Virus record (IMG/VR): IMGVR_UViG_3300025127_005641
Location: 1-55,986 of that record
DNA from: a virus
Taxonomy: Duplodnaviria > Caudoviricetes
DNA: 55,986 nt
Direction: 5' to 3' (one strand)
The notes beneath the pieces are model-generated. The model made no database searches. It saw only the letters and a list, made by a program, of their open reading frames with translations, and had not been told where the DNA came from. Made by a program: the position numbers and the translations under genes. Within the stretch, counting starts at the first letter, position 1, and every line of letters begins with the position of its first letter. This document shows, piece after piece, positions 4,077 through 46,134 of this stretch.

Positions 4077-5014
4077 GTGACTTTATATGGGTTGAAAAAT
4101 ACAGACCCAAAACAATTGATGAATGTATTCTTCCAGAGAGTATTAAGAAAACATTTAAGGAATTTCTAAATAGAGGAGAAATACCTAATATGCTTCTTGC
4201 TGGCCCTCCTGGTATAGGGAAGACTACTGTTGCTAAGGCATTGTGCAACGAATTGGGAGTAGATTCTTATGTTATCAACGGATCCGATGAAGGAAGATTT
4301 CTTGACACGGTCAGGAATAACGCAAAGAATTTTGCATCAACGGTATCTCTTACATCGGAAGCGAAGCACAAGGTCATCATCATTGATGAAGCAGACAACA
4401 CAAGCAATGATGTACAACTTTTACTCAGAGCTTTCATTGAAGAGTTTGCGGGAAATTGTAGATTCATCTTCACCTGTAACTACAAAAATAAAATACTCGA
4501 ACCCCTCCATTCAAGGTGTGCTGTCGTTGACTTTTCTATTAGAGGAAAAGAGAAGCAGAAAATCGCTGCTAATTTCTTCCAAAGGATCAATTTTATCTTG
4601 GAGCAAGAAGGGGTTGAAAGTGATAAGAAAGTATTAGTAGAATTAATTAATAAACATTTTCCAGACTGGAGAAGAGTATTAAATGAGTGTCAGAGATACT
4701 CAGTTAGTGGTAAGATAGATAGTGGAATATTAGTTGCTTTTTCAGATGTTGCTGTAAATGATCTGATTAAGAACCTTAAAACAAAAAACTTTCCTGAAGT
4801 ACGTAAGTGGGTCAATAGTAATATGGACAATGATACTTCTGTTTTATTTCGTAGGATTTATGATACTCTTTATGAGTGTTTAATTCCAAATACTATACCT
4901 GCTGCTGTTCTTGTTATTGCTAAGTATCAATATCAGATGGCATTCGTTGCAGATCAGGAAATAAACATGTTAGCATGTCTTACTGAAATCATGGTGGAAT
5001 GTGAATTCAAATAA
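4073..5014 (+). CDS. g44: clamp loader large subunit gp44
   Basis: WVEKYRP, GPPGIGKTT, IIDEAD, SRC motifs. Confidence 0.95.
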   Translation: MSDFIWVEKYRPKTIDECILPESIKKTFKEFLNRGEIPNMLLAGPPGIGKTTVAKALCNELGVDSYVINGSDEGRFLDTVRNNAKNFASTVSLTSEAKHKVIIIDEADNTSNDVQLLLRAFIEEFAGNCRFIFTCNYKNKILEPLHSRCAVVDFSIRGKEKQKIAANFFQRINFILEQEGVESDKKVLVELINKHFPDWRRVLNECQRYSVSGKIDSGILVAFSDVAVNDLIKNLKTKNFPEVRKWVNSNMDNDTSVLFRRIYDTLYECLIPNTIPAAVLVIAKYQYQMAFVADQEINMLACLTEIMVECEFK

Positions 5015-34441: not shown

Positions 34442-34858
34442 ATGGCTGAAGCAGTTAAAAAAGAAGAACCAAAAAAGAAAGGTATCATTAGTAAAATCAA
34501 AGAAGGTATTGATGATAAGGAAGAGCAACTGGCATTCTTATCTACAATCGTAAGACTTTCTGTTCTTGTATGGTCTGCAGGAATCCTAACTTTAGCATAT
34601 GTTAAGTTGCCAACTGCATTTAATATACCAGAGCAAAAACTGGATCCGACATTTATAGCCTCAGTTTTCACAGGAACCTTGGCTACTTTCGGAGTTCAAG
34701 CAGCAGGTAAGAAGAAAAATGGTGCTGATGGTAGTGGTAGTGCAAATATTTCTAAGAAAGATATGGAGTTTCTGATTGCAAAAGCATCTGAAACTGCACC
34801 TGCACAGACTATTCGTATCGAACAAGGTCCTGTAAAAATTGTTCCTGATGTAAAATAG
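34442..34858 (+). CDS. two-TM membrane protein
   Basis: LVWSAGILTLAYV...DPTFIASVFTGTLATFGV. Confidence 0.72.
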   Translation: MAEAVKKEEPKKKGIISKIKEGIDDKEEQLAFLSTIVRLSVLVWSAGILTLAYVKLPTAFNIPEQKLDPTFIASVFTGTLATFGVQAAGKKKNGADGSGSANISKKDMEFLIAKASETAPAQTIRIEQGPVKIVPDVK

Positions 34859-35640: not shown

Positions 35641-36144
35641 ATGAAAAAATTTAATACAACAGTTTTAGATATCACAATCTATATCTTAGACTTTCTTTAT
35701 AGAGGTAGAGACTTTCAAAGGTTCTGGGTATTAGAAGTAATTGCAAGAGCACCTTACTTTGCATTCATATCTGTGTTACATTTTCGTGAAAGTCTTGGAC
35801 TGCGTGGAGAAGAACACGTATATCTAATGAAGGAACACTTCTATCAGGCACTCAATGAAACAGAACATCTGGAAGAAATGGAGCTTAGAGAAGGTAACAA
35901 GTATTGGGTTGACCGCTTCTTTGCCAAACATCTTGTTTTACTTTATTATTGGATTATGGTTGGGTACTATCTTTTCAATCCTGTTAACGCTTACGACATC
36001 AACATGAAGATTGAGAAACATGCATTTGAAACCTATACAAAATACAGTGCATACCATCCCTTAGATACTAAGATTGCAGAGATTGCTCAAGATGAATATG
36101 AGCATTCCAAAGAATTACAAAAAGCGATGATGATGGTTGCATAG
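35641..36144 (+). CDS. ptoX: plastoquinol terminal oxidase
   Basis: RFWVLEVIARAPYF, NETEHL, IEKHA, DEYEH di-iron motifs. Confidence 0.93.
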   Translation: MKKFNTTVLDITIYILDFLYRGRDFQRFWVLEVIARAPYFAFISVLHFRESLGLRGEEHVYLMKEHFYQALNETEHLEEMELREGNKYWVDRFFAKHLVLLYYWIMVGYYLFNPVNAYDINMKIEKHAFETYTKYSAYHPLDTKIAEIAQDEYEHSKELQKAMMMVA

Positions 36145-37092: not shown

Positions 37093-37389
37093 ATGATTTT
37101 TTGGATTGGATTTTTTGTTATGTTTTTTAATGAAGGATTTGTTATGATGCGACATGTATCACCATGGTTCGCAAGACAAAGAAATAAATTTATTAAAAAA
37201 TTTGGTGAAAATATTTGGTATAGGTTCCATGGTACATTAGATTATGTTTGGATGATATTTGTAGGTCTTGGATTAATATTCAATTCTTACAGATTATTTC
37301 ATTTAGCAGTATTGATGACTTTTTGGGGTGTTTCATTTTCAATATTTTATTTACCAAGGTGGATAAGAAGATGGATAAGAGATGATTGA
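37093..37389 (+). CDS. membrane protein
   Basis: FFNEGFVMMRH, several TM segments. Confidence 0.68.
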   Translation: MIFWIGFFVMFFNEGFVMMRHVSPWFARQRNKFIKKFGENIWYRFHGTLDYVWMIFVGLGLIFNSYRLFHLAVLMTFWGVSFSIFYLPRWIRRWIRDD

Positions 37390-37558
37390 AGTTGTTCAAG
37401 GTGTAAATATTATGATAGCTATACTTTTAGTAGGAGTATGTGTTACAATATACTGGATATTTAAATACGATGATTGGAATCCTAACCCCGTTATTCATAG
37501 TAACATCCCCCATAAATCCAAACACAATGATTCAGGAAATGAGAAATTGGAAATCTGA
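37382..37558 (+). CDS. small single-TM protein
   Basis: MIEVVQGVNIMIAILLVGVCVTIYWIFKYD read manually. Confidence 0.5.
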   Translation: MIEVVQGVNIMIAILLVGVCVTIYWIFKYDDWNPNPVIHSNIPHKSKHNDSGNEKLEI

Positions 37559-37676
37559 ACAAGAAAGAACTCCAGTTGAAGAAATGCTAAATAATACACT
37601 TATGGAGTATGAAGATGGGTGCGATGGTTCCACCAAATCGGAAGAGTTGTTACAACTTCCGAGTAACGAAGATTAA
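37470..37676 (+). CDS. hypothetical protein overlapping both neighbours
   Basis: MIGILTPLFIV...EQERTPVEEMLNN. Confidence 0.4.
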   Translation: MIGILTPLFIVTSPINPNTMIQEMRNWKSEQERTPVEEMLNNTLMEYEDGCDGSTKSEELLQLPSNED

Positions 37677-38079
37677 TCGTGTTGTTGACGGGGATACTAT
37701 TGATGTCACCATTGATCTTGGGTTTGATCTATACAAGAAAGAAAGAGTTAGAATTGCAGGAGTTGATACACCAGAGAAGAGAACAAGAGACTTGGAAGAG
37801 AAAGCATTGGGATTAGATGCTACTAACTGGATGAAAGAAGAGTTAAATGCTGCCATTAAAGGAGACGACGAACTTACTATTAGAACCGAACTTAAGGGTG
37901 GCATGGGTAAGTATGGTAGGCTTCTTGGTTGGTTATATGTTGGCGAAGATGATGTATCACTCAACGAAAAAATGATTGTTCAAGGTTATGCGTGGTCATA
38001 TGATGGAGGAACTAAAAAGAAAGATTTTGAAGAATTGCGTGAGATACGTAGGTCATTCGGTACATTAGATGCTGGATAA
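37615..38079 (+). CDS. thermonuclease (SNase-like) family nuclease
   Basis: RVVDGDTIDV, RIAGVDTPE, GKYGRLLG, LNEKMIVQGYA. Confidence 0.88.
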   Translation: MGAMVPPNRKSCYNFRVTKINRVVDGDTIDVTIDLGFDLYKKERVRIAGVDTPEKRTRDLEEKALGLDATNWMKEELNAAIKGDDELTIRTELKGGMGKYGRLLGWLYVGEDDVSLNEKMIVQGYAWSYDGGTKKKDFEELREIRRSFGTLDAG

Positions 38080-38429
38080 TGTCTGAAATATTTGGTATTC
38101 TATTAATAATTCTATTCATCGTAACAGTAGTATATGTTTGTCTTAGATGGAGTAAACAAATTAAGTGGTTATTGACACCTCTTATTTGGTTAAAGGATAT
38201 ACTTGATGTACAATGGTGGGCAAATCTTATTGGTAATAAAACAGGATTATTTCAACGTGCAAGAAATAATTCATATAGACGATGGTTAGAAACATTGCCT
38301 ATGAAAAAGAAAATTGCTATTGAATTACTTATTGGTGTACCTGTGTTAATTTTAATGGATCACTATTTTCTTATGCCTTATTTTGGTCTAGCAATTTTGC
38401 CTTGGAATTGGGATTGGAGTGGAGGATGA
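38079..38429 (+). CDS. membrane protein
   Basis: N- and C-terminal hydrophobic helices. Confidence 0.65.
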   Translation: MSEIFGILLIILFIVTVVYVCLRWSKQIKWLLTPLIWLKDILDVQWWANLIGNKTGLFQRARNNSYRRWLETLPMKKKIAIELLIGVPVLILMDHYFLMPYFGLAILPWNWDWSGG

Positions 38430-38647
38430 TGAAAAGAACTATTATTGATATTTGTGCAATGACATCTTTTATTATTGTTGTTATGTTAGGAGCATCTGCT
38501 CTAAGAGTATATTTTACTAGAGAATCTACAATTAAAGAAAATAGAGATTGGATGCAGAAGGTAATAGAAGATGAGGTCATTAAACAAATTAAATTCATGA
38601 TGCCTAAAGAGACAGGTGGTGTAAATGTCGGAAATAAAACAAATTAA
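38426..38647 (+). CDS. membrane-anchored hypothetical protein
   Basis: GGAGG upstream, ATGA coupling, one TM. Confidence 0.62.
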   Translation: MMKRTIIDICAMTSFIIVVMLGASALRVYFTRESTIKENRDWMQKVIEDEVIKQIKFMMPKETGGVNVGNKTN

Positions 38648-39389
38648 TGTTCCAAATATTGTAATACCAAAATTTGGTACAAATGAGGTATGGTTAAATG
38701 GTGTGCCTTTTGTTCCTAATAATGATCCACCTATAACTTTACAGATTGGATTCCCGATTGTAGAGATACCTGGTTGTGTCAAGATGCACAAGGACAATCA
38801 GGATAAAGTTACTCGATTACCTTTTGATAAAGATCTTGTAAATCAAGATGAAAAAGGCACAACAACTTTATGCCCACATGGTGAATATCCAACATATGAT
38901 GCAATGAATTATGAACCAGAGCAATTAATAATCACAAGAGAAACTCCACCACCACCTGTTGCACCACCACCCACACCACCAGAGTTCACACCTGATGAAA
39001 TACCAGATCCAAAACAAGAAGTGCCTTGTCCTGGCCCAGGCCAATTAAGGATTGGTGATATAACTCAGTCAGGTGATGAAAGAGTTATTGGTCATCGACT
39101 TATTGAGGGTGGCAAAACCTGTGAGACATTATATGAACCAACTACAACTGTTGAAAAATTTCTCCCACCACTAAATCAAACATCAACTGTGACAGCACTT
39201 GCAGTGGTGGCTACAGCAGGTGCAGCAGCGACACCATTATTGATAAGAATTATAAGACCTGTAATCAAAAAGATATGGACTACTATTCAGAAAAAATTAG
39301 GTAAAAACGTTAGACAATTATCTAAATCAGAAATTGAAACAAATAAGTATCGTGAAAAGAAAGGACTACCACCTATCAAGAGGAAGTAA
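38625..39389 (+). CDS. Pro-rich, Cys-containing protein with C-terminal membrane anchor
   Basis: GFPIVEIPGCV, PPPPVAPPPTPP, ALAVVATAGAAATPLL plus basic tail. Confidence 0.72.
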   Translation: MSEIKQINVPNIVIPKFGTNEVWLNGVPFVPNNDPPITLQIGFPIVEIPGCVKMHKDNQDKVTRLPFDKDLVNQDEKGTTTLCPHGEYPTYDAMNYEPEQLIITRETPPPPVAPPPTPPEFTPDEIPDPKQEVPCPGPGQLRIGDITQSGDERVIGHRLIEGGKTCETLYEPTTTVEKFLPPLNQTSTVTALAVVATAGAAATPLLIRIIRPVIKKIWTTIQKKLGKNVRQLSKSEIETNKYREKKGLPPIKRK

Positions 39390-39390
39390 T

Positions 39391-40260
39391 CTATCTCTTA
39401 GTTCTTCCGATTGAAATGGTTTTTAAAACACTCGCATCCTTACTGATGGGTGGTTTTGTTTTAATTTTATGAGTATGCTCTGCAACAACACCTGGTGGAT
39501 TAACTAATACTACGTCTGCACATACCTTATAGTATGGTGATTTTTTATGGAACATGATACCAGCTTTCATTAATTCACCACAGTTCTTCAAACGAGCTAT
39601 CTCAAAATCTAATCTTTTATTTGCGACTGCCTGATTCATTAAATTAATATTTGCTGCTGCTGCCTGTTTACATTGCTCTTGTAACTTCTTATCTAATGGT
39701 TTAGACCATGTAGCAGAGACACCAAGTGACACTGTACTACTGTCTTTCTGACCTGTTCTTGTTGGTTTATAAAACAAAATTTCCCCTGGATTGTCTGGTA
39801 CATCATCATCATTTGCGTCAACATTATTGTACACGGGATCCATCCAATAATCCTCATACGGCCGCTTTATGGCGATATTTCCTGTGGCGAAGGGGGTAAC
39901 GTTCATGGTAGGACCTTGGCATTGTATCCCATTACCATATGTGTTAGTTATATACGGTCCTTGTAATACTTGTATAGCTTGATTCGTTACTGAGCCTGAA
40001 GAGTTGGCTACTGGGTTTGCTGTTGCTGATACACCACCTATGTCACTCGCAAACGTAGGTGTTACTGATCCAAGTAAACAGATTGAAATCAGTTTGAGAA
40101 AGTGCTGGTTGTATTTGTTACGCTTTGGATAGTGGTCGTGCGATTTATTATTGTGTGATTTTTCAGGCCTGGCCCAGAATAGCTTTCCGTGAATTGAAAG
40201 GGATCTCCTGGTGTTACCATTGTGAAGTTTGGCTTTTGTGTGTGATCTAAACCAGTCCAT
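39391..40260 (-). CDS. secreted hypothetical protein, start uncertain
   Basis: Signal-like LISICLLGSVTPTFA, GGVSATANPVANSSGSVTNQAIQ, FEIARLKNCGEL...CADV. Confidence 0.75.
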   Translation of the reverse strand: MDWFRSHTKAKLHNGNTRRSLSIHGKLFWARPEKSHNNKSHDHYPKRNKYNQHFLKLISICLLGSVTPTFASDIGGVSATANPVANSSGSVTNQAIQVLQGPYITNTYGNGIQCQGPTMNVTPFATGNIAIKRPYEDYWMDPVYNNVDANDDDVPDNPGEILFYKPTRTGQKDSSTVSLGVSATWSKPLDKKLQEQCKQAAAANINLMNQAVANKRLDFEIARLKNCGELMKAGIMFHKKSPYYKVCADVVLVNPPGVVAEHTHKIKTKPPISKDASVLKTISIGRTKR

Positions 40261-40523
40261 GTCGAAGTCACTCCATTCAGTGTATTACTATTTTGGTTAG
40301 TGTTAGGTGCCGAAATAGTGCTTCCATCGTGTTGTATGTTTGTGCCCGTTATTACATACTGATAGCCCGTATCGTATTGCATCGAATTTATCGTCTCCGT
40401 CACGGTGGAAGTCGTTTCCGTGTTTGAAGTCATTGAGCCCTGTGTAAAATTTGGGACCACGGGCACTGCATACGCAGATGGTATGATACTAAAAAGAAGT
40501 AGTAGTATACTATATCTTTTCAT
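40089..40523 (-). CDS. secreted Thr-rich protein
   Basis: Sec signal ending SAYA, then VPVVPNFTQGSMTS. Confidence 0.8.
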   Translation of the reverse strand: MKRYSILLLLFSIIPSAYAVPVVPNFTQGSMTSNTETTSTVTETINSMQYDTGYQYVITGTNIQHDGSTISAPNTNQNSNTLNGVTSTWTGLDHTQKPNFTMVTPGDPFQFTESYSGPGLKNHTIINRTTTIQSVTNTTSTFSN

Positions 40524-40535
40524 GATATCACAAAT

Positions 40536-41036
40536 CTAATTTATTGTCAACTCGTTTACAAATTGCCCAACAGCCACAGTACCAGCTCCACCACTTGTTA
40601 CCGTCATCGCTCCAGCAGTTGTGATAGTACCAGCTAGAGTACCTGCTGTACCAGCTGATGTTGAAACTTGATCTGATAGAGCACTTACAGCACCAGTAGT
40701 TGGAGCACTTGTTACTAATGCATCACCAGCAACGAATGACTGACTTAAGCTGAAACTTGCACCTGGAACATCTTGTGTAAATGTAGTTGCCGTAGGATCA
40801 CCTACACCTGAAGAAAATGTCATTGCACCGATACCATTGGTTACAGCACTGTCACCAGAACCATATGTGCTATCGAGACCATTTCCACTTACCGCATAGG
40901 TGTTACCAACTCTCTCAACTTGAGTGGCTGCAGCATTCACGGTTAACTGAACACTTGAACTTAGTTTATGTGTAATATCCGCAAATGCAGGAGAACTAAA
41001 ACCCGCAAACAATAATAAGGTAAATAGTTTCTTCAT
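40536..41036 (-). CDS. secreted Ser/Thr/Gly/Ala-rich protein
   Basis: Sec signal ending PAFA, then DITHKLSSSVQLTV. Confidence 0.8.
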   Translation of the reverse strand: MKKLFTLLLFAGFSSPAFADITHKLSSSVQLTVNAAATQVERVGNTYAVSGNGLDSTYGSGDSAVTNGIGAMTFSSGVGDPTATTFTQDVPGASFSLSQSFVAGDALVTSAPTTGAVSALSDQVSTSAGTAGTLAGTITTAGAMTVTSGGAGTVAVGQFVNELTIN

Positions 41037-41064
41037 GTGTAAAAATACTTATTACTTACTGCTC

Positions 41065-41071
41065 TATTTAG
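41065..41071 (-). promoter_or_regulatory. late promoter CTAAATA for the minus-strand operon
   Basis: TATTTAG on plus strand, about 30 nt upstream of the 41036 start. Confidence 0.6.
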
Positions 41072-41620: not shown

Positions 41621-41664
41621 TTTGACTATATAAGAGAAATAATATGAACAATTCATCAAAGACT

Positions 41665-42327
41665 ATGAAAATTTTTCTTGATACCGCAGATACTCAAGCA
41701 ATTAAAGAAGGATATGATACTGGATTGGTAGATGGAATTACTACCAATCCTTCTTTAATTATGAAGAGTGGTAGAAATCCCGAAGATGTATACCAAGAGT
41801 TAATTGACTTGGGTATACCCGATATAAGTATGGAGGTGGTGGGTAATGCTCCCTCTATGGCTTTAGAAGGAGCAAGACTTGTTAAAAAATTTGGTAAAGA
41901 TCAAACTACAATTAAAGTTCCTTGTACACCAGATGGTTTATGGGTATGTAAACAGTTATCAAAAGACTTGATAAAAGTAAATGTAACTCTTATATTTTCA
42001 CCAGCACAGGCAATACTTGCTGCAAAAGCAGGTGCAACATATGTTTCACCATTTGTAGGTAGAGTTGATGATAATTCATATGGTGGTCTATGTCTTATAA
42101 AAGATATTGCGAATGTATATGCAAAACAAAATTGGAAACAGACTGAAATATTAGCAGCTTCTATCAGAAATGTAAGAGATGTAGGTAGAGCATTTGAGTA
42201 TGGTGCTAACATATGTACTATACCAACAGGAGTATTTGATAAGATGTATAAGCATGTATTAACTGATGCTGGATTGGCACAGTTTGATAGGGATTGGGCA
42301 GAGGTACAGATCGGATTGACTGATTAA
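41665..42327 (+). CDS. talC: transaldolase (TalC/Fsa type)
   Basis: MKIFLDTAD, GITTNPSL, TIKVPCT, NVTLIFS, YVSPFVGR, LAASIR. Confidence 0.95.
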   Translation: MKIFLDTADTQAIKEGYDTGLVDGITTNPSLIMKSGRNPEDVYQELIDLGIPDISMEVVGNAPSMALEGARLVKKFGKDQTTIKVPCTPDGLWVCKQLSKDLIKVNVTLIFSPAQAILAAKAGATYVSPFVGRVDDNSYGGLCLIKDIANVYAKQNWKQTEILAASIRNVRDVGRAFEYGANICTIPTGVFDKMYKHVLTDAGLAQFDRDWAEVQIGLTD

Positions 42328-42572: not shown

Positions 42573-42602
42573 CTTGACACATTCTTAACCTTGTGTTAAA
42601 CT
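42573..42602 (+). promoter_or_regulatory. Pho box (PhoB/SphR-type)
   Basis: CTTGACAC-att-CTTAACCT-tgt-GTTAAACT: three 8-mers at 11-bp period, the middle one matching the cyanobacterial consensus. Confidence 0.65.
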
Positions 42603-42722
42603 AAATACCATTACATAGAACAAAGGCCCGAAAGATCGTCCCCTGCGTAGAATGTAAAATTCTAGTCGAAAGAATTTCCATCCGCAGGTTTTTTAATGCC
42701 TTGCGAGATACTATAAACAAAA

Positions 42723-43079
42723 ATGATTAAATCAACAATCGCTGCAGTAGCAGCATCTCCATTCCTATTCGCTGGTGCAGCCTTTGCTGGTCCATACGTT
42801 AATTTGGAAGCAAGTGGTTCATATCCTGATGGTGCATACACATCTGGTGGACTTGAAGCAGTAGTTGGATACGAAGGAGCAACAGAATCAGGTATCGGTT
42901 GGTACGTGTCTGGTGGCCCAACAGTAACTCATACAGAAACTGCTGATGAGTTCGGTGATGTAGAATTCATTGGATACGTCGGTGGATCTTATGATAAGTT
43001 CTACGGAGAAATCTCTGGTGTAACTGCAGAAGACGATGTTGACTGGTCTGCTAAAGCAGGTGTTAAGTTCACATTCTAA
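42723..43079 (+). CDS. secreted small beta-barrel-like protein (PhCOG173/DUF680-type)
   Basis: Signal peptide ending AAFA, then GPYVN; alternating beta pattern; C-terminal KAGVKFTF. Confidence 0.75.
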   Translation: MIKSTIAAVAASPFLFAGAAFAGPYVNLEASGSYPDGAYTSGGLEAVVGYEGATESGIGWYVSGGPTVTHTETADEFGDVEFIGYVGGSYDKFYGEISGVTAEDDVDWSAKAGVKFTF

Positions 43080-45520: not shown

Positions 45521-45733
45521 ATGAAACTTACTTCAAAATTCAAGAAAGACATAGGTATCCTTAAGGCTGCCGTAAACAACGAACTTTTGCTTGACATTAG
45601 AAATCCTAAATTGTATAAAAAATTAAAAAGATATTATCAAGATGAAATATCTTACAACAATGAAGATCCAGATGCTGATTATGGTCTTATAATAGAATGT
45701 ATCAGACAAGATCTTGAAGGAGTTGAAGTATAA
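45521..45733 (+). CDS. conserved hypothetical protein
   Basis: LDIRNPKLYKKLKRYY. Confidence 0.7.
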   Translation: MKLTSKFKKDIGILKAAVNNELLLDIRNPKLYKKLKRYYQDEISYNNEDPDADYGLIIECIRQDLEGVEV

Positions 45734-46134
45734 TGAAAATTTTATTTGCTGCTGCTTTGCTTTTGTCATCTGTTCCTGTAGTCGCAGATGATTATCAAGC
45801 AGGCTATTCATCTTCTAAGACTTGTTATAGATCTGAATATAGAGAAGAATATGTACCAGGTACAGAAGATAATCCTGGTTATGTAAGATCTTGGAAGGAA
45901 ACTATTGAGTTCCCTTGTGAGAGAAATAAAGCCACAATTACAACACCAACAAGAACAGTGATTGAAAGACACTATGAAGTTGATGATAATGATTGCACTG
46001 ATGGTAAAATTGCTGGTGGTATTTTAGGTGGTGGACTTGCTGCTGCTGTATCAAGAGGTGATGGCCGTTGGTGGGCAATTCCATTAGGTGTTGTTGCTGG
46101 TAGTAAAATTGGATGCGATGCTGCTGGAGGATGA
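45733..46134 (+). CDS. secreted glycine-zipper 2TM protein
   Basis: Signal peptide, CYRSEYREEYVPG, GGILGGGLAAA...WAIPLG. Confidence 0.75.
   Translation: MKILFAAALLLSSVPVVADDYQAGYSSSKTCYRSEYREEYVPGTEDNPGYVRSWKETIEFPCERNKATITTPTRTVIERHYEVDDNDCTDGKIAGGILGGGLAAAVSRGDGRWWAIPLGVVAGSKIGCDAAGG

Follow-up and report, generated by a model that had tools for sequence, protein, structure and literature searches.

Organization, Distribution, and Possible Lysis Role of a Conserved Cassette of Exported and Membrane Proteins in T4-Like and T7-Like Cyanophages

Organization and Identity of the Cassette

The viral DNA considered here is IMG/VR record IMGVR_UViG_3300025127_005641 (Duplodnaviria; Caudoviricetes), the full 55,986 nucleotides (nt) of which are referred to below as the window. 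It represents a fragment of a T4-like cyanomyovirus (CheckV completeness ∼29%), the closest named relatives of which are the Prochlorococcus phages P-TIM68, MED4-213, and P-HM1, with ∼68–70% nucleotide identity over the region. Almost every gene in the window is on the plus strand; the exception is a run of three genes, termed g1, g2, and g3, which together with the plus-strand gene g4 form the cassette that is the subject of this analysis (Table 1). When open reading frames (ORFs) of at least 100 amino acids (aa) that do not lie inside a plus-strand gene are considered, g1-g2-g3 is the only minus-strand run in the window, in agreement with an initial annotation made from the sequence, which had singled it out as the only convincing minus-strand operon. 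The run converges on g4, as that annotation also described, with the g4 stop ending at 39389 and the g3 stop codon beginning at 39391, leaving one base between them. GC skew is 0.06 and 0.04 at 38–42 kb compared with 0.26 and 0.15 in the flanks, a dip that matches the cassette.

The four proteins give full-length hidden Markov model matches to the PHROG families phrog_564, phrog_650, phrog_848, and phrog_570 (E 5e-52, 1e-56, 7e-125, and 4.5e-67 for g1 to g4, respectively), all of which are families without an assigned function. The g2 protein additionally matches Pfam DUF6322 (E 4e-37; 127.2 bits against a gathering cut-off of 30.6), while no Pfam family matched g1, homologs of which are named ‘OMP1 protein’ in some GenBank records. 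The P-HM1 orthologs of g1 to g4 are annotated as T4-GC 237, 236, 235, and 234, and a supplementary FASTA file assigns Syn9 gp164–167 to these cluster numbers (Sullivan et al., 2010; PMC3037559). A cluster of hypothetical proteins comprising T4-GC 218, 219, 234, 235, and 237, to which the cassette genes belong, was described in the parts of that paper devoted to it as present in 15 of 16 cyanomyoviruses and as showing signs of mobility (Sullivan et al., 2010, Environ Microbiol 12:3035; PMC3037559); those parts contain no analysis of function, export, paralogy, the g2/g3 overlap, or a link to endolysins. T4-GC 236 and a ‘plasmid stability’ gene, T4-GC 414, go with the same cluster. The cassette is a genuine, conserved feature and was already in print as a group of hypothetical genes, which bears out the earlier remark that such genes occur as hypotheticals, with no printed function, in other cyanophages (T4-GC 234–237). 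Literature searches directed at cyanophage lysis or export, DUF6322, and OMP1 found no functional study of the cassette genes.

Table 1. Features of the cassette and of its wider set of genes. Positions are nucleotides of the window unless given as residues (aa) of g3.
Feature	Position	Strand	Basis or remarks
g1	40536–41036	minus	ORF, 166 aa; phrog_564; T4-GC 237; Syn9 gp167
g2	40089–40523	minus	ORF, 144 aa; Pfam DUF6322; phrog_650; T4-GC 236; Syn9 gp166
g3	39391–40260	minus	ORF, 289 aa; phrog_848/1755; T4-GC 235; Syn9 gp165
g4	38625–39389	plus	ORF, 254 aa; phrog_570; T4-GC 234; Syn9 gp164
g3 N-terminal extension	aa 1 to ∼55	minus	Basic
g3 signal-peptide-like hydrophobic segment, ending TFA before SD	aa ∼56–71	minus	Sequence
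g3 mature domain	aa 72–289	minus	Invariant N-terminal segment, beta-sheet, long helix, four invariant Cys
g2/g3 out-of-frame overlap, 172 nt	40089–40260	minus	g3 in the -1 frame of g2; ORFs and recoding test
GGAG, Shine-Dalgarno-like	40271–40274	minus	11–14 nt upstream of the g3 ATG, inside g2; sequence
CTAAATA, T4-late-promoter-like	41065–41071	minus	28 nt upstream of the g1 ATG; sequence and conservation
CTAAATA	37587–37593	plus	15 nt upstream of the first gene (nuclease) of the plus-strand run ending in g4; sequence
Small membrane-protein gene, phrog_31764	38079–38429	plus	First of two such genes directly upstream of g4
Small membrane-protein gene	38426–38647	plus	At the site of a single-pass ‘plasmid stability’ protein (T4-GC 414) in relatives
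DUF6450 membrane protein (T4-GC 218), detached member of the wider cassette	34442–34858	plus	Pfam DUF6450, E 2e-34
Small beta-barrel-like protein with C-terminal KFTF; detached wider-cassette member	42723–43079	plus	Pfam Phage_OMP PF24653, E 7e-31; phrog_417

The Exported Proteins g1 and g2

The g1 product is an S/T/G/A-rich beta protein with a Sec signal. Three features of such signals were scored, namely a short basic n-region, an h-region of ∼10–15 residues, and small residues at positions -3 and -1, and all three are present in both g1 and g2; their signal peptides, the cleavage of which is predicted, possess a basic n-region of 3–4 residues, a hydrophobic core (median 11-aa hydropathy 2.4–2.5), and A-x-A type ends. 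Among homologs the signal sequences drift while the mature N-termini are fixed, these being DITHKLSSS in g1 and VPVVPNFTQGSMTS in g2, the latter nearly invariant in the homolog alignment. A pairwise BLASTP comparison of g1 with g2 yields an E of only 0.06, although profile–profile comparison using hhalign aligns the two over 60 columns with a probability of 96% (E 2.9e-9), and the aligned columns include both of the motif pairs that had been quoted when the proteins were first suspected of being paralogous. Judged by their sequence profiles, g1 and g2 are remote paralogs.

The g2/g3 Overlap and the Start of g3

All three minus-strand genes had initially been annotated as encoding Sec-signal proteins. 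This holds in standard form for g1 and g2, and g3 does contain a signal-like segment, but its start is not found beside that segment, lying instead 172 nt inside g2. No ATG, GTG, or TTG is located next to the segment (LKLISICLLGSVTPTFA, followed by SD), either here or in most homologs, and the g3 frame is open for ∼55 further codons upstream, up to an ATG within g2. Because this ATG lies ∼170 nt inside g2, the signal-like segment would sit behind a basic extension of ∼55 residues. Its h- and c-regions fit a Sec signal, whereas the n-region extends over ∼53 residues and its median net charge is +8. Distant g3 homologs have ordinary short signal peptides, and for this reason the hydrophobic segment is read as a signal peptide in the window protein also.

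The overlap is 166–178 nt long in all 79 of the usable loci from relatives, and the position of the ATG is fixed; absence of stop codons within the overlap is true by construction, and hence the fixed ATG is the informative part of this count. When the last ∼57 codons of g2 were recoded synonymously, employing the codon usage of the g2 family itself, 3.1% of trials on average (median 1.5%) left the g3 frame open, compared with 74 of 74 distinct natural overlap sequences. In a T7-like podovirus clade described below, where the ATG of g3 overlaps the g2 stop, the same frame contains between one and nine stops in each of 76 sequences. The entropy of fourfold-degenerate sites in g2 is 1.29 bits within the overlap and 1.40 bits elsewhere, a difference that is not significant (p 0.10), so that the case for selection rests upon the recoding test, by which the overlap is under selection. 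Since the fourfold sites of g2 are barely constrained, the g3 extension seems to need only to stay open and basic.

Initiation at the internal ATG appears far more likely than a route through frameshifting. The A of this ATG is always derived from an NNA codon of g2 (ACA in 55, TCA in 14, and CAA in 5 sequences), even though ACA constitutes only 31% of Thr codons elsewhere in the gene, and a GGAG is found at the upstream position listed in Table 1 in 43 of 50 distinct homologous 30-mers, its A being the third base of a g2 Gly codon. Expression of g3 as a -1 frameshift fusion with g2, or by re-initiation at a non-canonical codon, with the upstream ATG left unused, would be in keeping with the frame relationship of the two genes and with the lack of a start codon beside the hydrophobic segment in most homologs; set against the constant distance of the ATG, the origin of its A, and the conserved GGAG, such a route is highly improbable. 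Frameshifting is further disfavored because other lineages keep the frame open still further upstream to a different ATG, which frameshifting would not need.

The overlap explains why public annotations of the third gene disagree. In the g3 homologs P0167, P0174, P0224, and P0266, the ORF continues ∼95 to 135 residues upstream of the hydrophobic segment and starts with MGI or MAI, and extensions of this type imply an overlap with most of g2. In cyanophage 9515-10a (L164, 4563–5558), the annotated 313-aa ‘gp165’ ORF is open across the whole of a g2-like ORF (4582–4977) that lies in a different frame and of which the N-terminal half alone is matched by the g2 profile.

Structure of g3 and the Search for Known Relatives

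Four Cys residues are invariant in a 55-row g3 alignment consisting of the window protein and relatives from the myovirus clade; two remain invariant and two nearly so in a wider alignment of 65 rows. Modeling of full-length g3 with AlphaFold2 (AF2) from a shallow alignment was unusable, with a mean predicted local distance difference test (pLDDT) score of 48, and was rerun on the mature part with 65 diverse rows. The resulting model (mean pLDDT 77.9) comprises a beta-sheet at residues 34–115 and a 42-residue helix at 120–161, which agrees with the earlier description of the third protein as beta-strands with a Cys-containing helical tail. The first 23 residues of the mature model are of low confidence, yet are the most conserved part of the protein, and the run GSVTNQAIQVLQGPY within this N-terminal segment is invariant in the 55 rows. 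The mature N-terminus may bear some likeness to TonB-box-like motifs, which carries no weight in the readings below. Some g3 lineages carry loop insertions of up to ∼100 residues. Longer forms of g3 amount to 616 proteins, with no Pfam domain among the 120 matches listed; in five examples the additional length consists of longer N-terminal overlaps, loop insertions, and C-terminal tails.

Among the four proteins, structure models cover g3 only. A Foldseek search of the g3 model against the PDB gave no match at E ≤ 0.001; chains of TolC appear among the best rows, at E values above 2 that are not meaningful. A wide fold search with VIA-align returned single-helix matches only (Z ≤ 5.1), and the ESM Atlas returned only the protein's own viral hypothetical clusters. 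Apart from its single long helix, the g3 model resembled no solved fold. PDB sequence-profile searches with all four proteins found nothing significant (rows for TcdA, at E 0.11, represent noise), and neither Pfam nor NCBIfam matched any family in 22 distant g3 homologs. Complex prediction with mature g3 and residues 1–188 of g4, run without controls, scored 0.00 and gives no answer either way.

These searches bear upon the proposal in the initial annotation of a curli- or pilus-like system built from a major subunit, a minor subunit, an assembly protein, and an anchor. In such a surface fiber g1 and g2 would polymerize outside the cytoplasmic membrane, g3 would be an assembly or secretion factor, and g4 would be the anchor. 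The two paralogs do have attributes expected of subunits: they are exported, Cys-free, S/T/G/A-rich beta proteins whose mature N-termini are conserved, a combination often found in pilin-type subunits, and g1 is the more variable of the pair, with insertions among its homologs, as exposed subunits tend to be. Nevertheless, Pfam and NCBIfam searches with the four proteins turned up no curlin, pilin, usher, or periplasmic-chaperone family, the PDB profile searches were empty, and fold searches with the g3 model gave nothing like a secretin, CsgG, or an usher. The genes that recur beside the cassette encode an endolysin-like protein and small membrane proteins in place of assembly machinery, and these associations point to lysis. 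The fiber analogy is accordingly not upheld, and a surface fiber is considered quite unlikely.

Late-Promoter-Like Motifs

The heptamer CTAAATA upstream of g1 resembles TATAAATA, which we take to be the consensus of the T4 late -10 element, promoters of this type having no -35 element. Of 57 distinct homologous regions preceding g1, 47 have the core, TAAATA, at a distance of 26–71 nt (nearly always 28–38 nt) from the gene, and a TATATA-type variant occupies the same position in most of the other 10; TAAATA is not enriched window-wide (82 matches versus 108 expected). The same heptamer also precedes the Phage_OMP gene. The motif upstream of g1 is thus a candidate late promoter, and the cassette can be regarded as late-type, which supports the late promoter initially assigned to the operon in the form of a putative, conserved late-type motif. 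Contigs at least 90% like the window are present in RNA-seq data from four marine runs of three studies, touching 25, 27, 16, and 29 of 30 bins; they are mostly from relatives, carry no strand or end information, and may include DNA carry-over, and are not counted as evidence of expression.

g4 and the Wider Cassette

The g4 protein has no N-terminal hydrophobic segment or signal. It has a Pro-rich center, four conserved single Cys residues (two invariant and two at least 90% conserved), and an Ala/Gly-rich C-terminal hydrophobic stretch near residue 189 (∼nt 39189–39260), which is followed by a basic tail: the median number of K/R residues is 8 in the 25 residues after the stretch versus 1 in the 15 before it. 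The earlier portrayal of g4 as a Pro-rich, four-Cys, membrane-anchored protein is thereby substantiated. From the positive-inside rule, we infer that the tail is cytoplasmic and the N-terminal domain periplasmic (N-out, C-in). The four invariant Cys of g3 and the four conserved Cys of g4 would fit an oxidizing compartment.

In the window, g4 ends a tightly packed plus-strand run in which a nuclease gene (phrog_452) and then two small membrane-protein genes (together 37609–38647) precede it. Cassette membership of the gene at 38426–38647 is inferred from its position, since its similarity to T4-GC 414 is marginal (E 0.014). Two more small membrane-protein ORFs are present at 37093–37558. The wider members of the cassette, namely the DUF6450 protein, the ‘plasmid stability’-type protein, and Phage_OMP, are scattered in this window. 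The DUF6450 protein is 73% identical to P-HM1 PHM1_192, and in the podovirus clade 71 of 80 loci have a homolog of it, which adjoins g1; a Phage_OMP homolog is located beside the cassette in 60 of the 80. The window leader of Phage_OMP (42601–42722) places ∼115 nt between CTAAATA and the ATG and contains a GC-rich inverted repeat (CCTGCG ... CGCAGG) followed by TTTTTT that looks like a terminator or attenuator. The cassette is flanked by auxiliary metabolic genes at 35641–36144, 41644–42327, and 45733–46134 (plastoquinol terminal oxidase, transaldolase, and cAMP phosphodiesterase-like).

The company of a beta-barrel-like Pfam Phage_OMP gene raises the alternative that the cassette proteins, together with this barrel, form or modify an outer-membrane channel that serves metabolism during infection, and the abundance of auxiliary metabolic genes in the window, such as PTOX and transaldolase, would suit such a role in permeability or transport. 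A late-type motif is however unsuited to an early metabolic role, g1 and g2 possess no consistent terminal aromatic beta-signal among their homologs, and no porin family was matched, so that this alternative is very unlikely.

Distribution and Co-inheritance

Eighty IMG/VR loci were fetched with g3, and gene presence was determined by tblastn. Homologs in the same order were detected for g3 in 80, g2 in 79, g4 in 76, and g1 in 68, and those misses that were looked at, a subset, fall at contig ends. Inversion has put g4 on the strand of g1–g3 in 11 loci, without a change of position. Among 50,697 phage records, g1, g2, g3, and g4 were detected in 338, 405, 429, and 318, respectively, and only in cyanophage or marine-virus records; a g3 profile run against 1.84 billion representative proteins yielded 578 g3 clusters. 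A divergent g3 branch (∼48% identical) belongs to T7-like podoviruses, of which uvMED S37-C6 (Autographiviridae) is an annotated example. This podovirus clade, sampled by a locus scan with the single protein P0023, has g1-g2-g3 converging on g4 in 75 of 80 loci, and the T7-like cyanophage 9515-10a carries g2, g3, and two accessory genes. Co-occurrence of the four genes across phages, which had been suggested as a check of the initial annotation, is therefore seen both in the 80 loci fetched with g3 and in the podovirus clade, and on this comparative evidence the cassette is a mobile, co-inherited gene set.

Myovirus and podovirus particles are built from unrelated parts, which makes a shared role in the virion unlikely, and g1–g4 products as virion components are correspondingly unlikely. 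Movement between unrelated phages of the same hosts is also a trait of host-interaction accessory genes, and the periplasm and outer membrane are the predicted destinations of the proteins. Both observations would be compatible with superinfection exclusion or surface masking, in which exported proteins alter the envelope such that other phages, or the phage's own progeny, are blocked from adsorbing to or injecting into infected cells or debris; T4 Sp and Imm and T5 Llp are examples of exclusion or masking proteins. The promoter motif is nonetheless late-type, whereas the exclusion genes known to us act early. Myoviruses and podoviruses carry very similar cassettes, and a receptor common to both is unlikely; no family was matched in a PADLOC scan, and the adjacent endolysin-like gene (see below) fits lysis better. 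An exclusion role is therefore regarded as unlikely.

Links to Lysis Genes and a Proposed Role

As no known family or fold explains the proteins, the genomic neighbors, in particular endolysin-like genes, provide the best clues to function. Wherever loci of the podovirus clade offer at least 1.6 kb of sequence upstream of g1 (65 of 80, the other 15 having no such room), an endolysin-like gene is located 487–927 nt upstream of g1. Its product, which has a hydrophobic segment at the N-terminus, matches phrog_10051 ‘endolysin’ (E 1e-54) and, weakly, a C39-like peptidase. In the freshwater myovirus DSL-LC03, two annotated endolysins, an annotated autotransporter beta-barrel protein, DUF6450, a g4-like anchor, g3, g2, and g1 are contiguous. 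The cassette genes of 9515-10a lie between tail/internal-protein genes and the small terminase gene, which we take to be the position where the T7 map has the holin gene 17.5 and the spanin genes 18.5/18.7.

Several neighboring genes deserve separate mention. In the podovirus clade, two small genes separate the endolysin-like gene from the cassette (L110, 5322–5771; L168, 5736–6011). One such gene, encoding 84 aa (phrog_26178), specifies an N-terminal hydrophobic segment and then a coiled-coil-like region; it also precedes the lysozyme gene of siphovirus S-CBS1, and may be a holin- or i-spanin-like candidate. The DSL-LC03 protein annotated with an autotransporter outer-membrane beta-barrel domain is 549 aa long, and its gene (L170, 3374–5023) is flanked by the two endolysin genes on one side and the cassette on the other.

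In other phages of Gram-negative hosts, spanins breach the outer layers of the cell at lysis. According to the passages on cyanophages in a survey of spanins, no spanin was identifiable in 20 phages of Prochlorococcus and Synechococcus, including Syn9 and P-HM1, and the question was raised as to whether such phages need another route through the outer membrane; the same passages suggest that an inner-membrane protein with a C-terminal transmembrane domain (TMD) and an outer-membrane protein could together act as a spanin (Kongari et al., 2018; PMC6139136). It is proposed, with a probability of about 0.4, that the cassette is a late envelope-breaching (lysis) module of these ‘spanin-less’ phages. 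The cassette products would act in the envelope of the host cell, not in the virion. Late in infection, exported g1, g2, and g3, along with the small Phage_OMP barrel, would reach the periplasm and outer membrane, where they may assemble with the membrane proteins (g4, DUF6450, and small single-pass proteins) across the periplasm and outer membrane, and the assembly would help to breach the outer layers at lysis, the job otherwise done by spanins.

A more specific and rather doubtful version is that the cassette constitutes a hitherto unrecognized multi-protein envelope-breaching apparatus of marine and freshwater picocyanobacterial phages, trans-periplasmic and destroying the outer membrane. 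The Sec-exported, non-lipoprotein beta proteins g1 and g2 and the Phage_OMP barrel would form the trans-periplasmic assembly, g3 would be a disulfide-bonded helix protein whose invariant N-terminal segment engages a conserved component of the host envelope, g4 would be an inner-membrane protein anchored by its C-terminus, and the 170-nt overlap would set the g2:g3 ratio.

A number of observations weigh against a lysis role. Lipobox-like motifs occur in only 0 of 60 g1, 3 of 73 g2, and 1 of 73 g3 signal regions, and hence there is no lipoprotein signal; nor is there an i-spanin with an N-terminal TMD and coiled coil among the cassette proteins, the hydrophobic segment of g3 looking cleavable (A-x-A ends) as opposed to a retained N-terminal TMD, and the TMD of g4 being C-terminal. 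The N-out topology of g4 is unusual and unproven, in that a ∼190-residue N-terminal domain would be translocated without a signal peptide. Adjacency to endolysin-like genes may represent just two historical events. Marine myoviruses that have both genes have them far apart, as in S-RIM14, where the endolysin-like gene maps to ∼11.5 kb and g3 to ∼139 kb, a separation of ∼127 kb (positions taken from different isolates of about 179.56 kb). There is no endolysin-like gene in the window, although a fragment representing ∼29% of the genome is uninformative on this point. S-PM2, PSS2, and S-CBP2 have a C39-like gene but no g2 or g3, and so not every cyanophage requires the cassette in order to lyse its host. 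Finally, four to seven proteins is, to our knowledge, far above the number needed by known outer-membrane disruptors. A small island of genes found only in S-PM2 (L169, 3821–6087) may serve that phage as a lysis set of another kind: p156 is the C39-like endolysin homolog, p157 is annotated as ‘putative lysin’, and p160 as ‘lipoprotein precursor’.

Prochlorococcus and Synechococcus are the most abundant photosynthetic cells of the ocean, and a large share of them is killed by T4-like and T7-like cyanophages; we know of no complete lysis system for either group of phages. The cassette is put forward tentatively as a candidate for the means by which these very abundant ocean viruses break open their hosts. 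Since it is conserved, carries a late-type motif, is aimed at the envelope, is common to unrelated phage families of the same hosts, and is endolysin-adjacent in two lineages, it would make the question of how the outer membrane is breached directly testable.

Comparison With Known Systems

By sequence and predicted structure, the cassette is not a member of any of the characterized systems compared here. Like curli (CsgA/B with CsgE/F/G) and chaperone-usher pili, it is a small operon encoding two related, exported, beta-rich, subunit-like proteins together with envelope proteins. It differs from curli in that no curlin repeat or CsgG-like family was detected (Pfam and NCBIfam, four proteins), and no such fold was listed for the g3 model, a negative of little weight by itself; it differs from chaperone-usher pili in that no usher or PapD-like chaperone family was found among the four proteins or in the flanking-gene PHROG matches scanned.

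Same-strand overprinted phage genes include phiX174 E within D and lambda Rz1 within Rz. Comparable to these, the start and first ∼57 codons of g3 are read in a second frame of g2 and appear to be held open by selection; the difference is that only an N-terminal extension of g3 is overprinted, with little constraint on the fourfold sites of g2.

Two-component spanins (lambda Rz/Rz1, T7 gp18.5/18.7, and T4 PseT.3/PseT.2) differ from the cassette in several respects. In such a pair the o-spanin is an outer-membrane lipoprotein with a lipobox Cys, and its partner, the i-spanin, has type II topology, its TMD lying at the N-terminus and its coiled coil in the periplasm (see Kongari et al., 2018; PMC6139136), whereas the cassette has no lipoprotein and its anchor is C-terminal. 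It furthermore consists of at least four proteins as against two, and exhibits no sequence or fold similarity to spanins. What the cassette has in common with the spanins is that its genes are late-type and encode envelope proteins, that one of them overlaps its neighbor out of frame, and that g3, with its long helix and conserved Cys, has a Pro-rich, membrane-anchored partner in g4. Spanin-type placement near an endolysin gene is seen in the podovirus clade and DSL-LC03 and not in this window or S-RIM14; thus the cassette adjoins an endolysin-like gene in some of the phages that carry it, and the phages that carry it are ones without a recognizable spanin.

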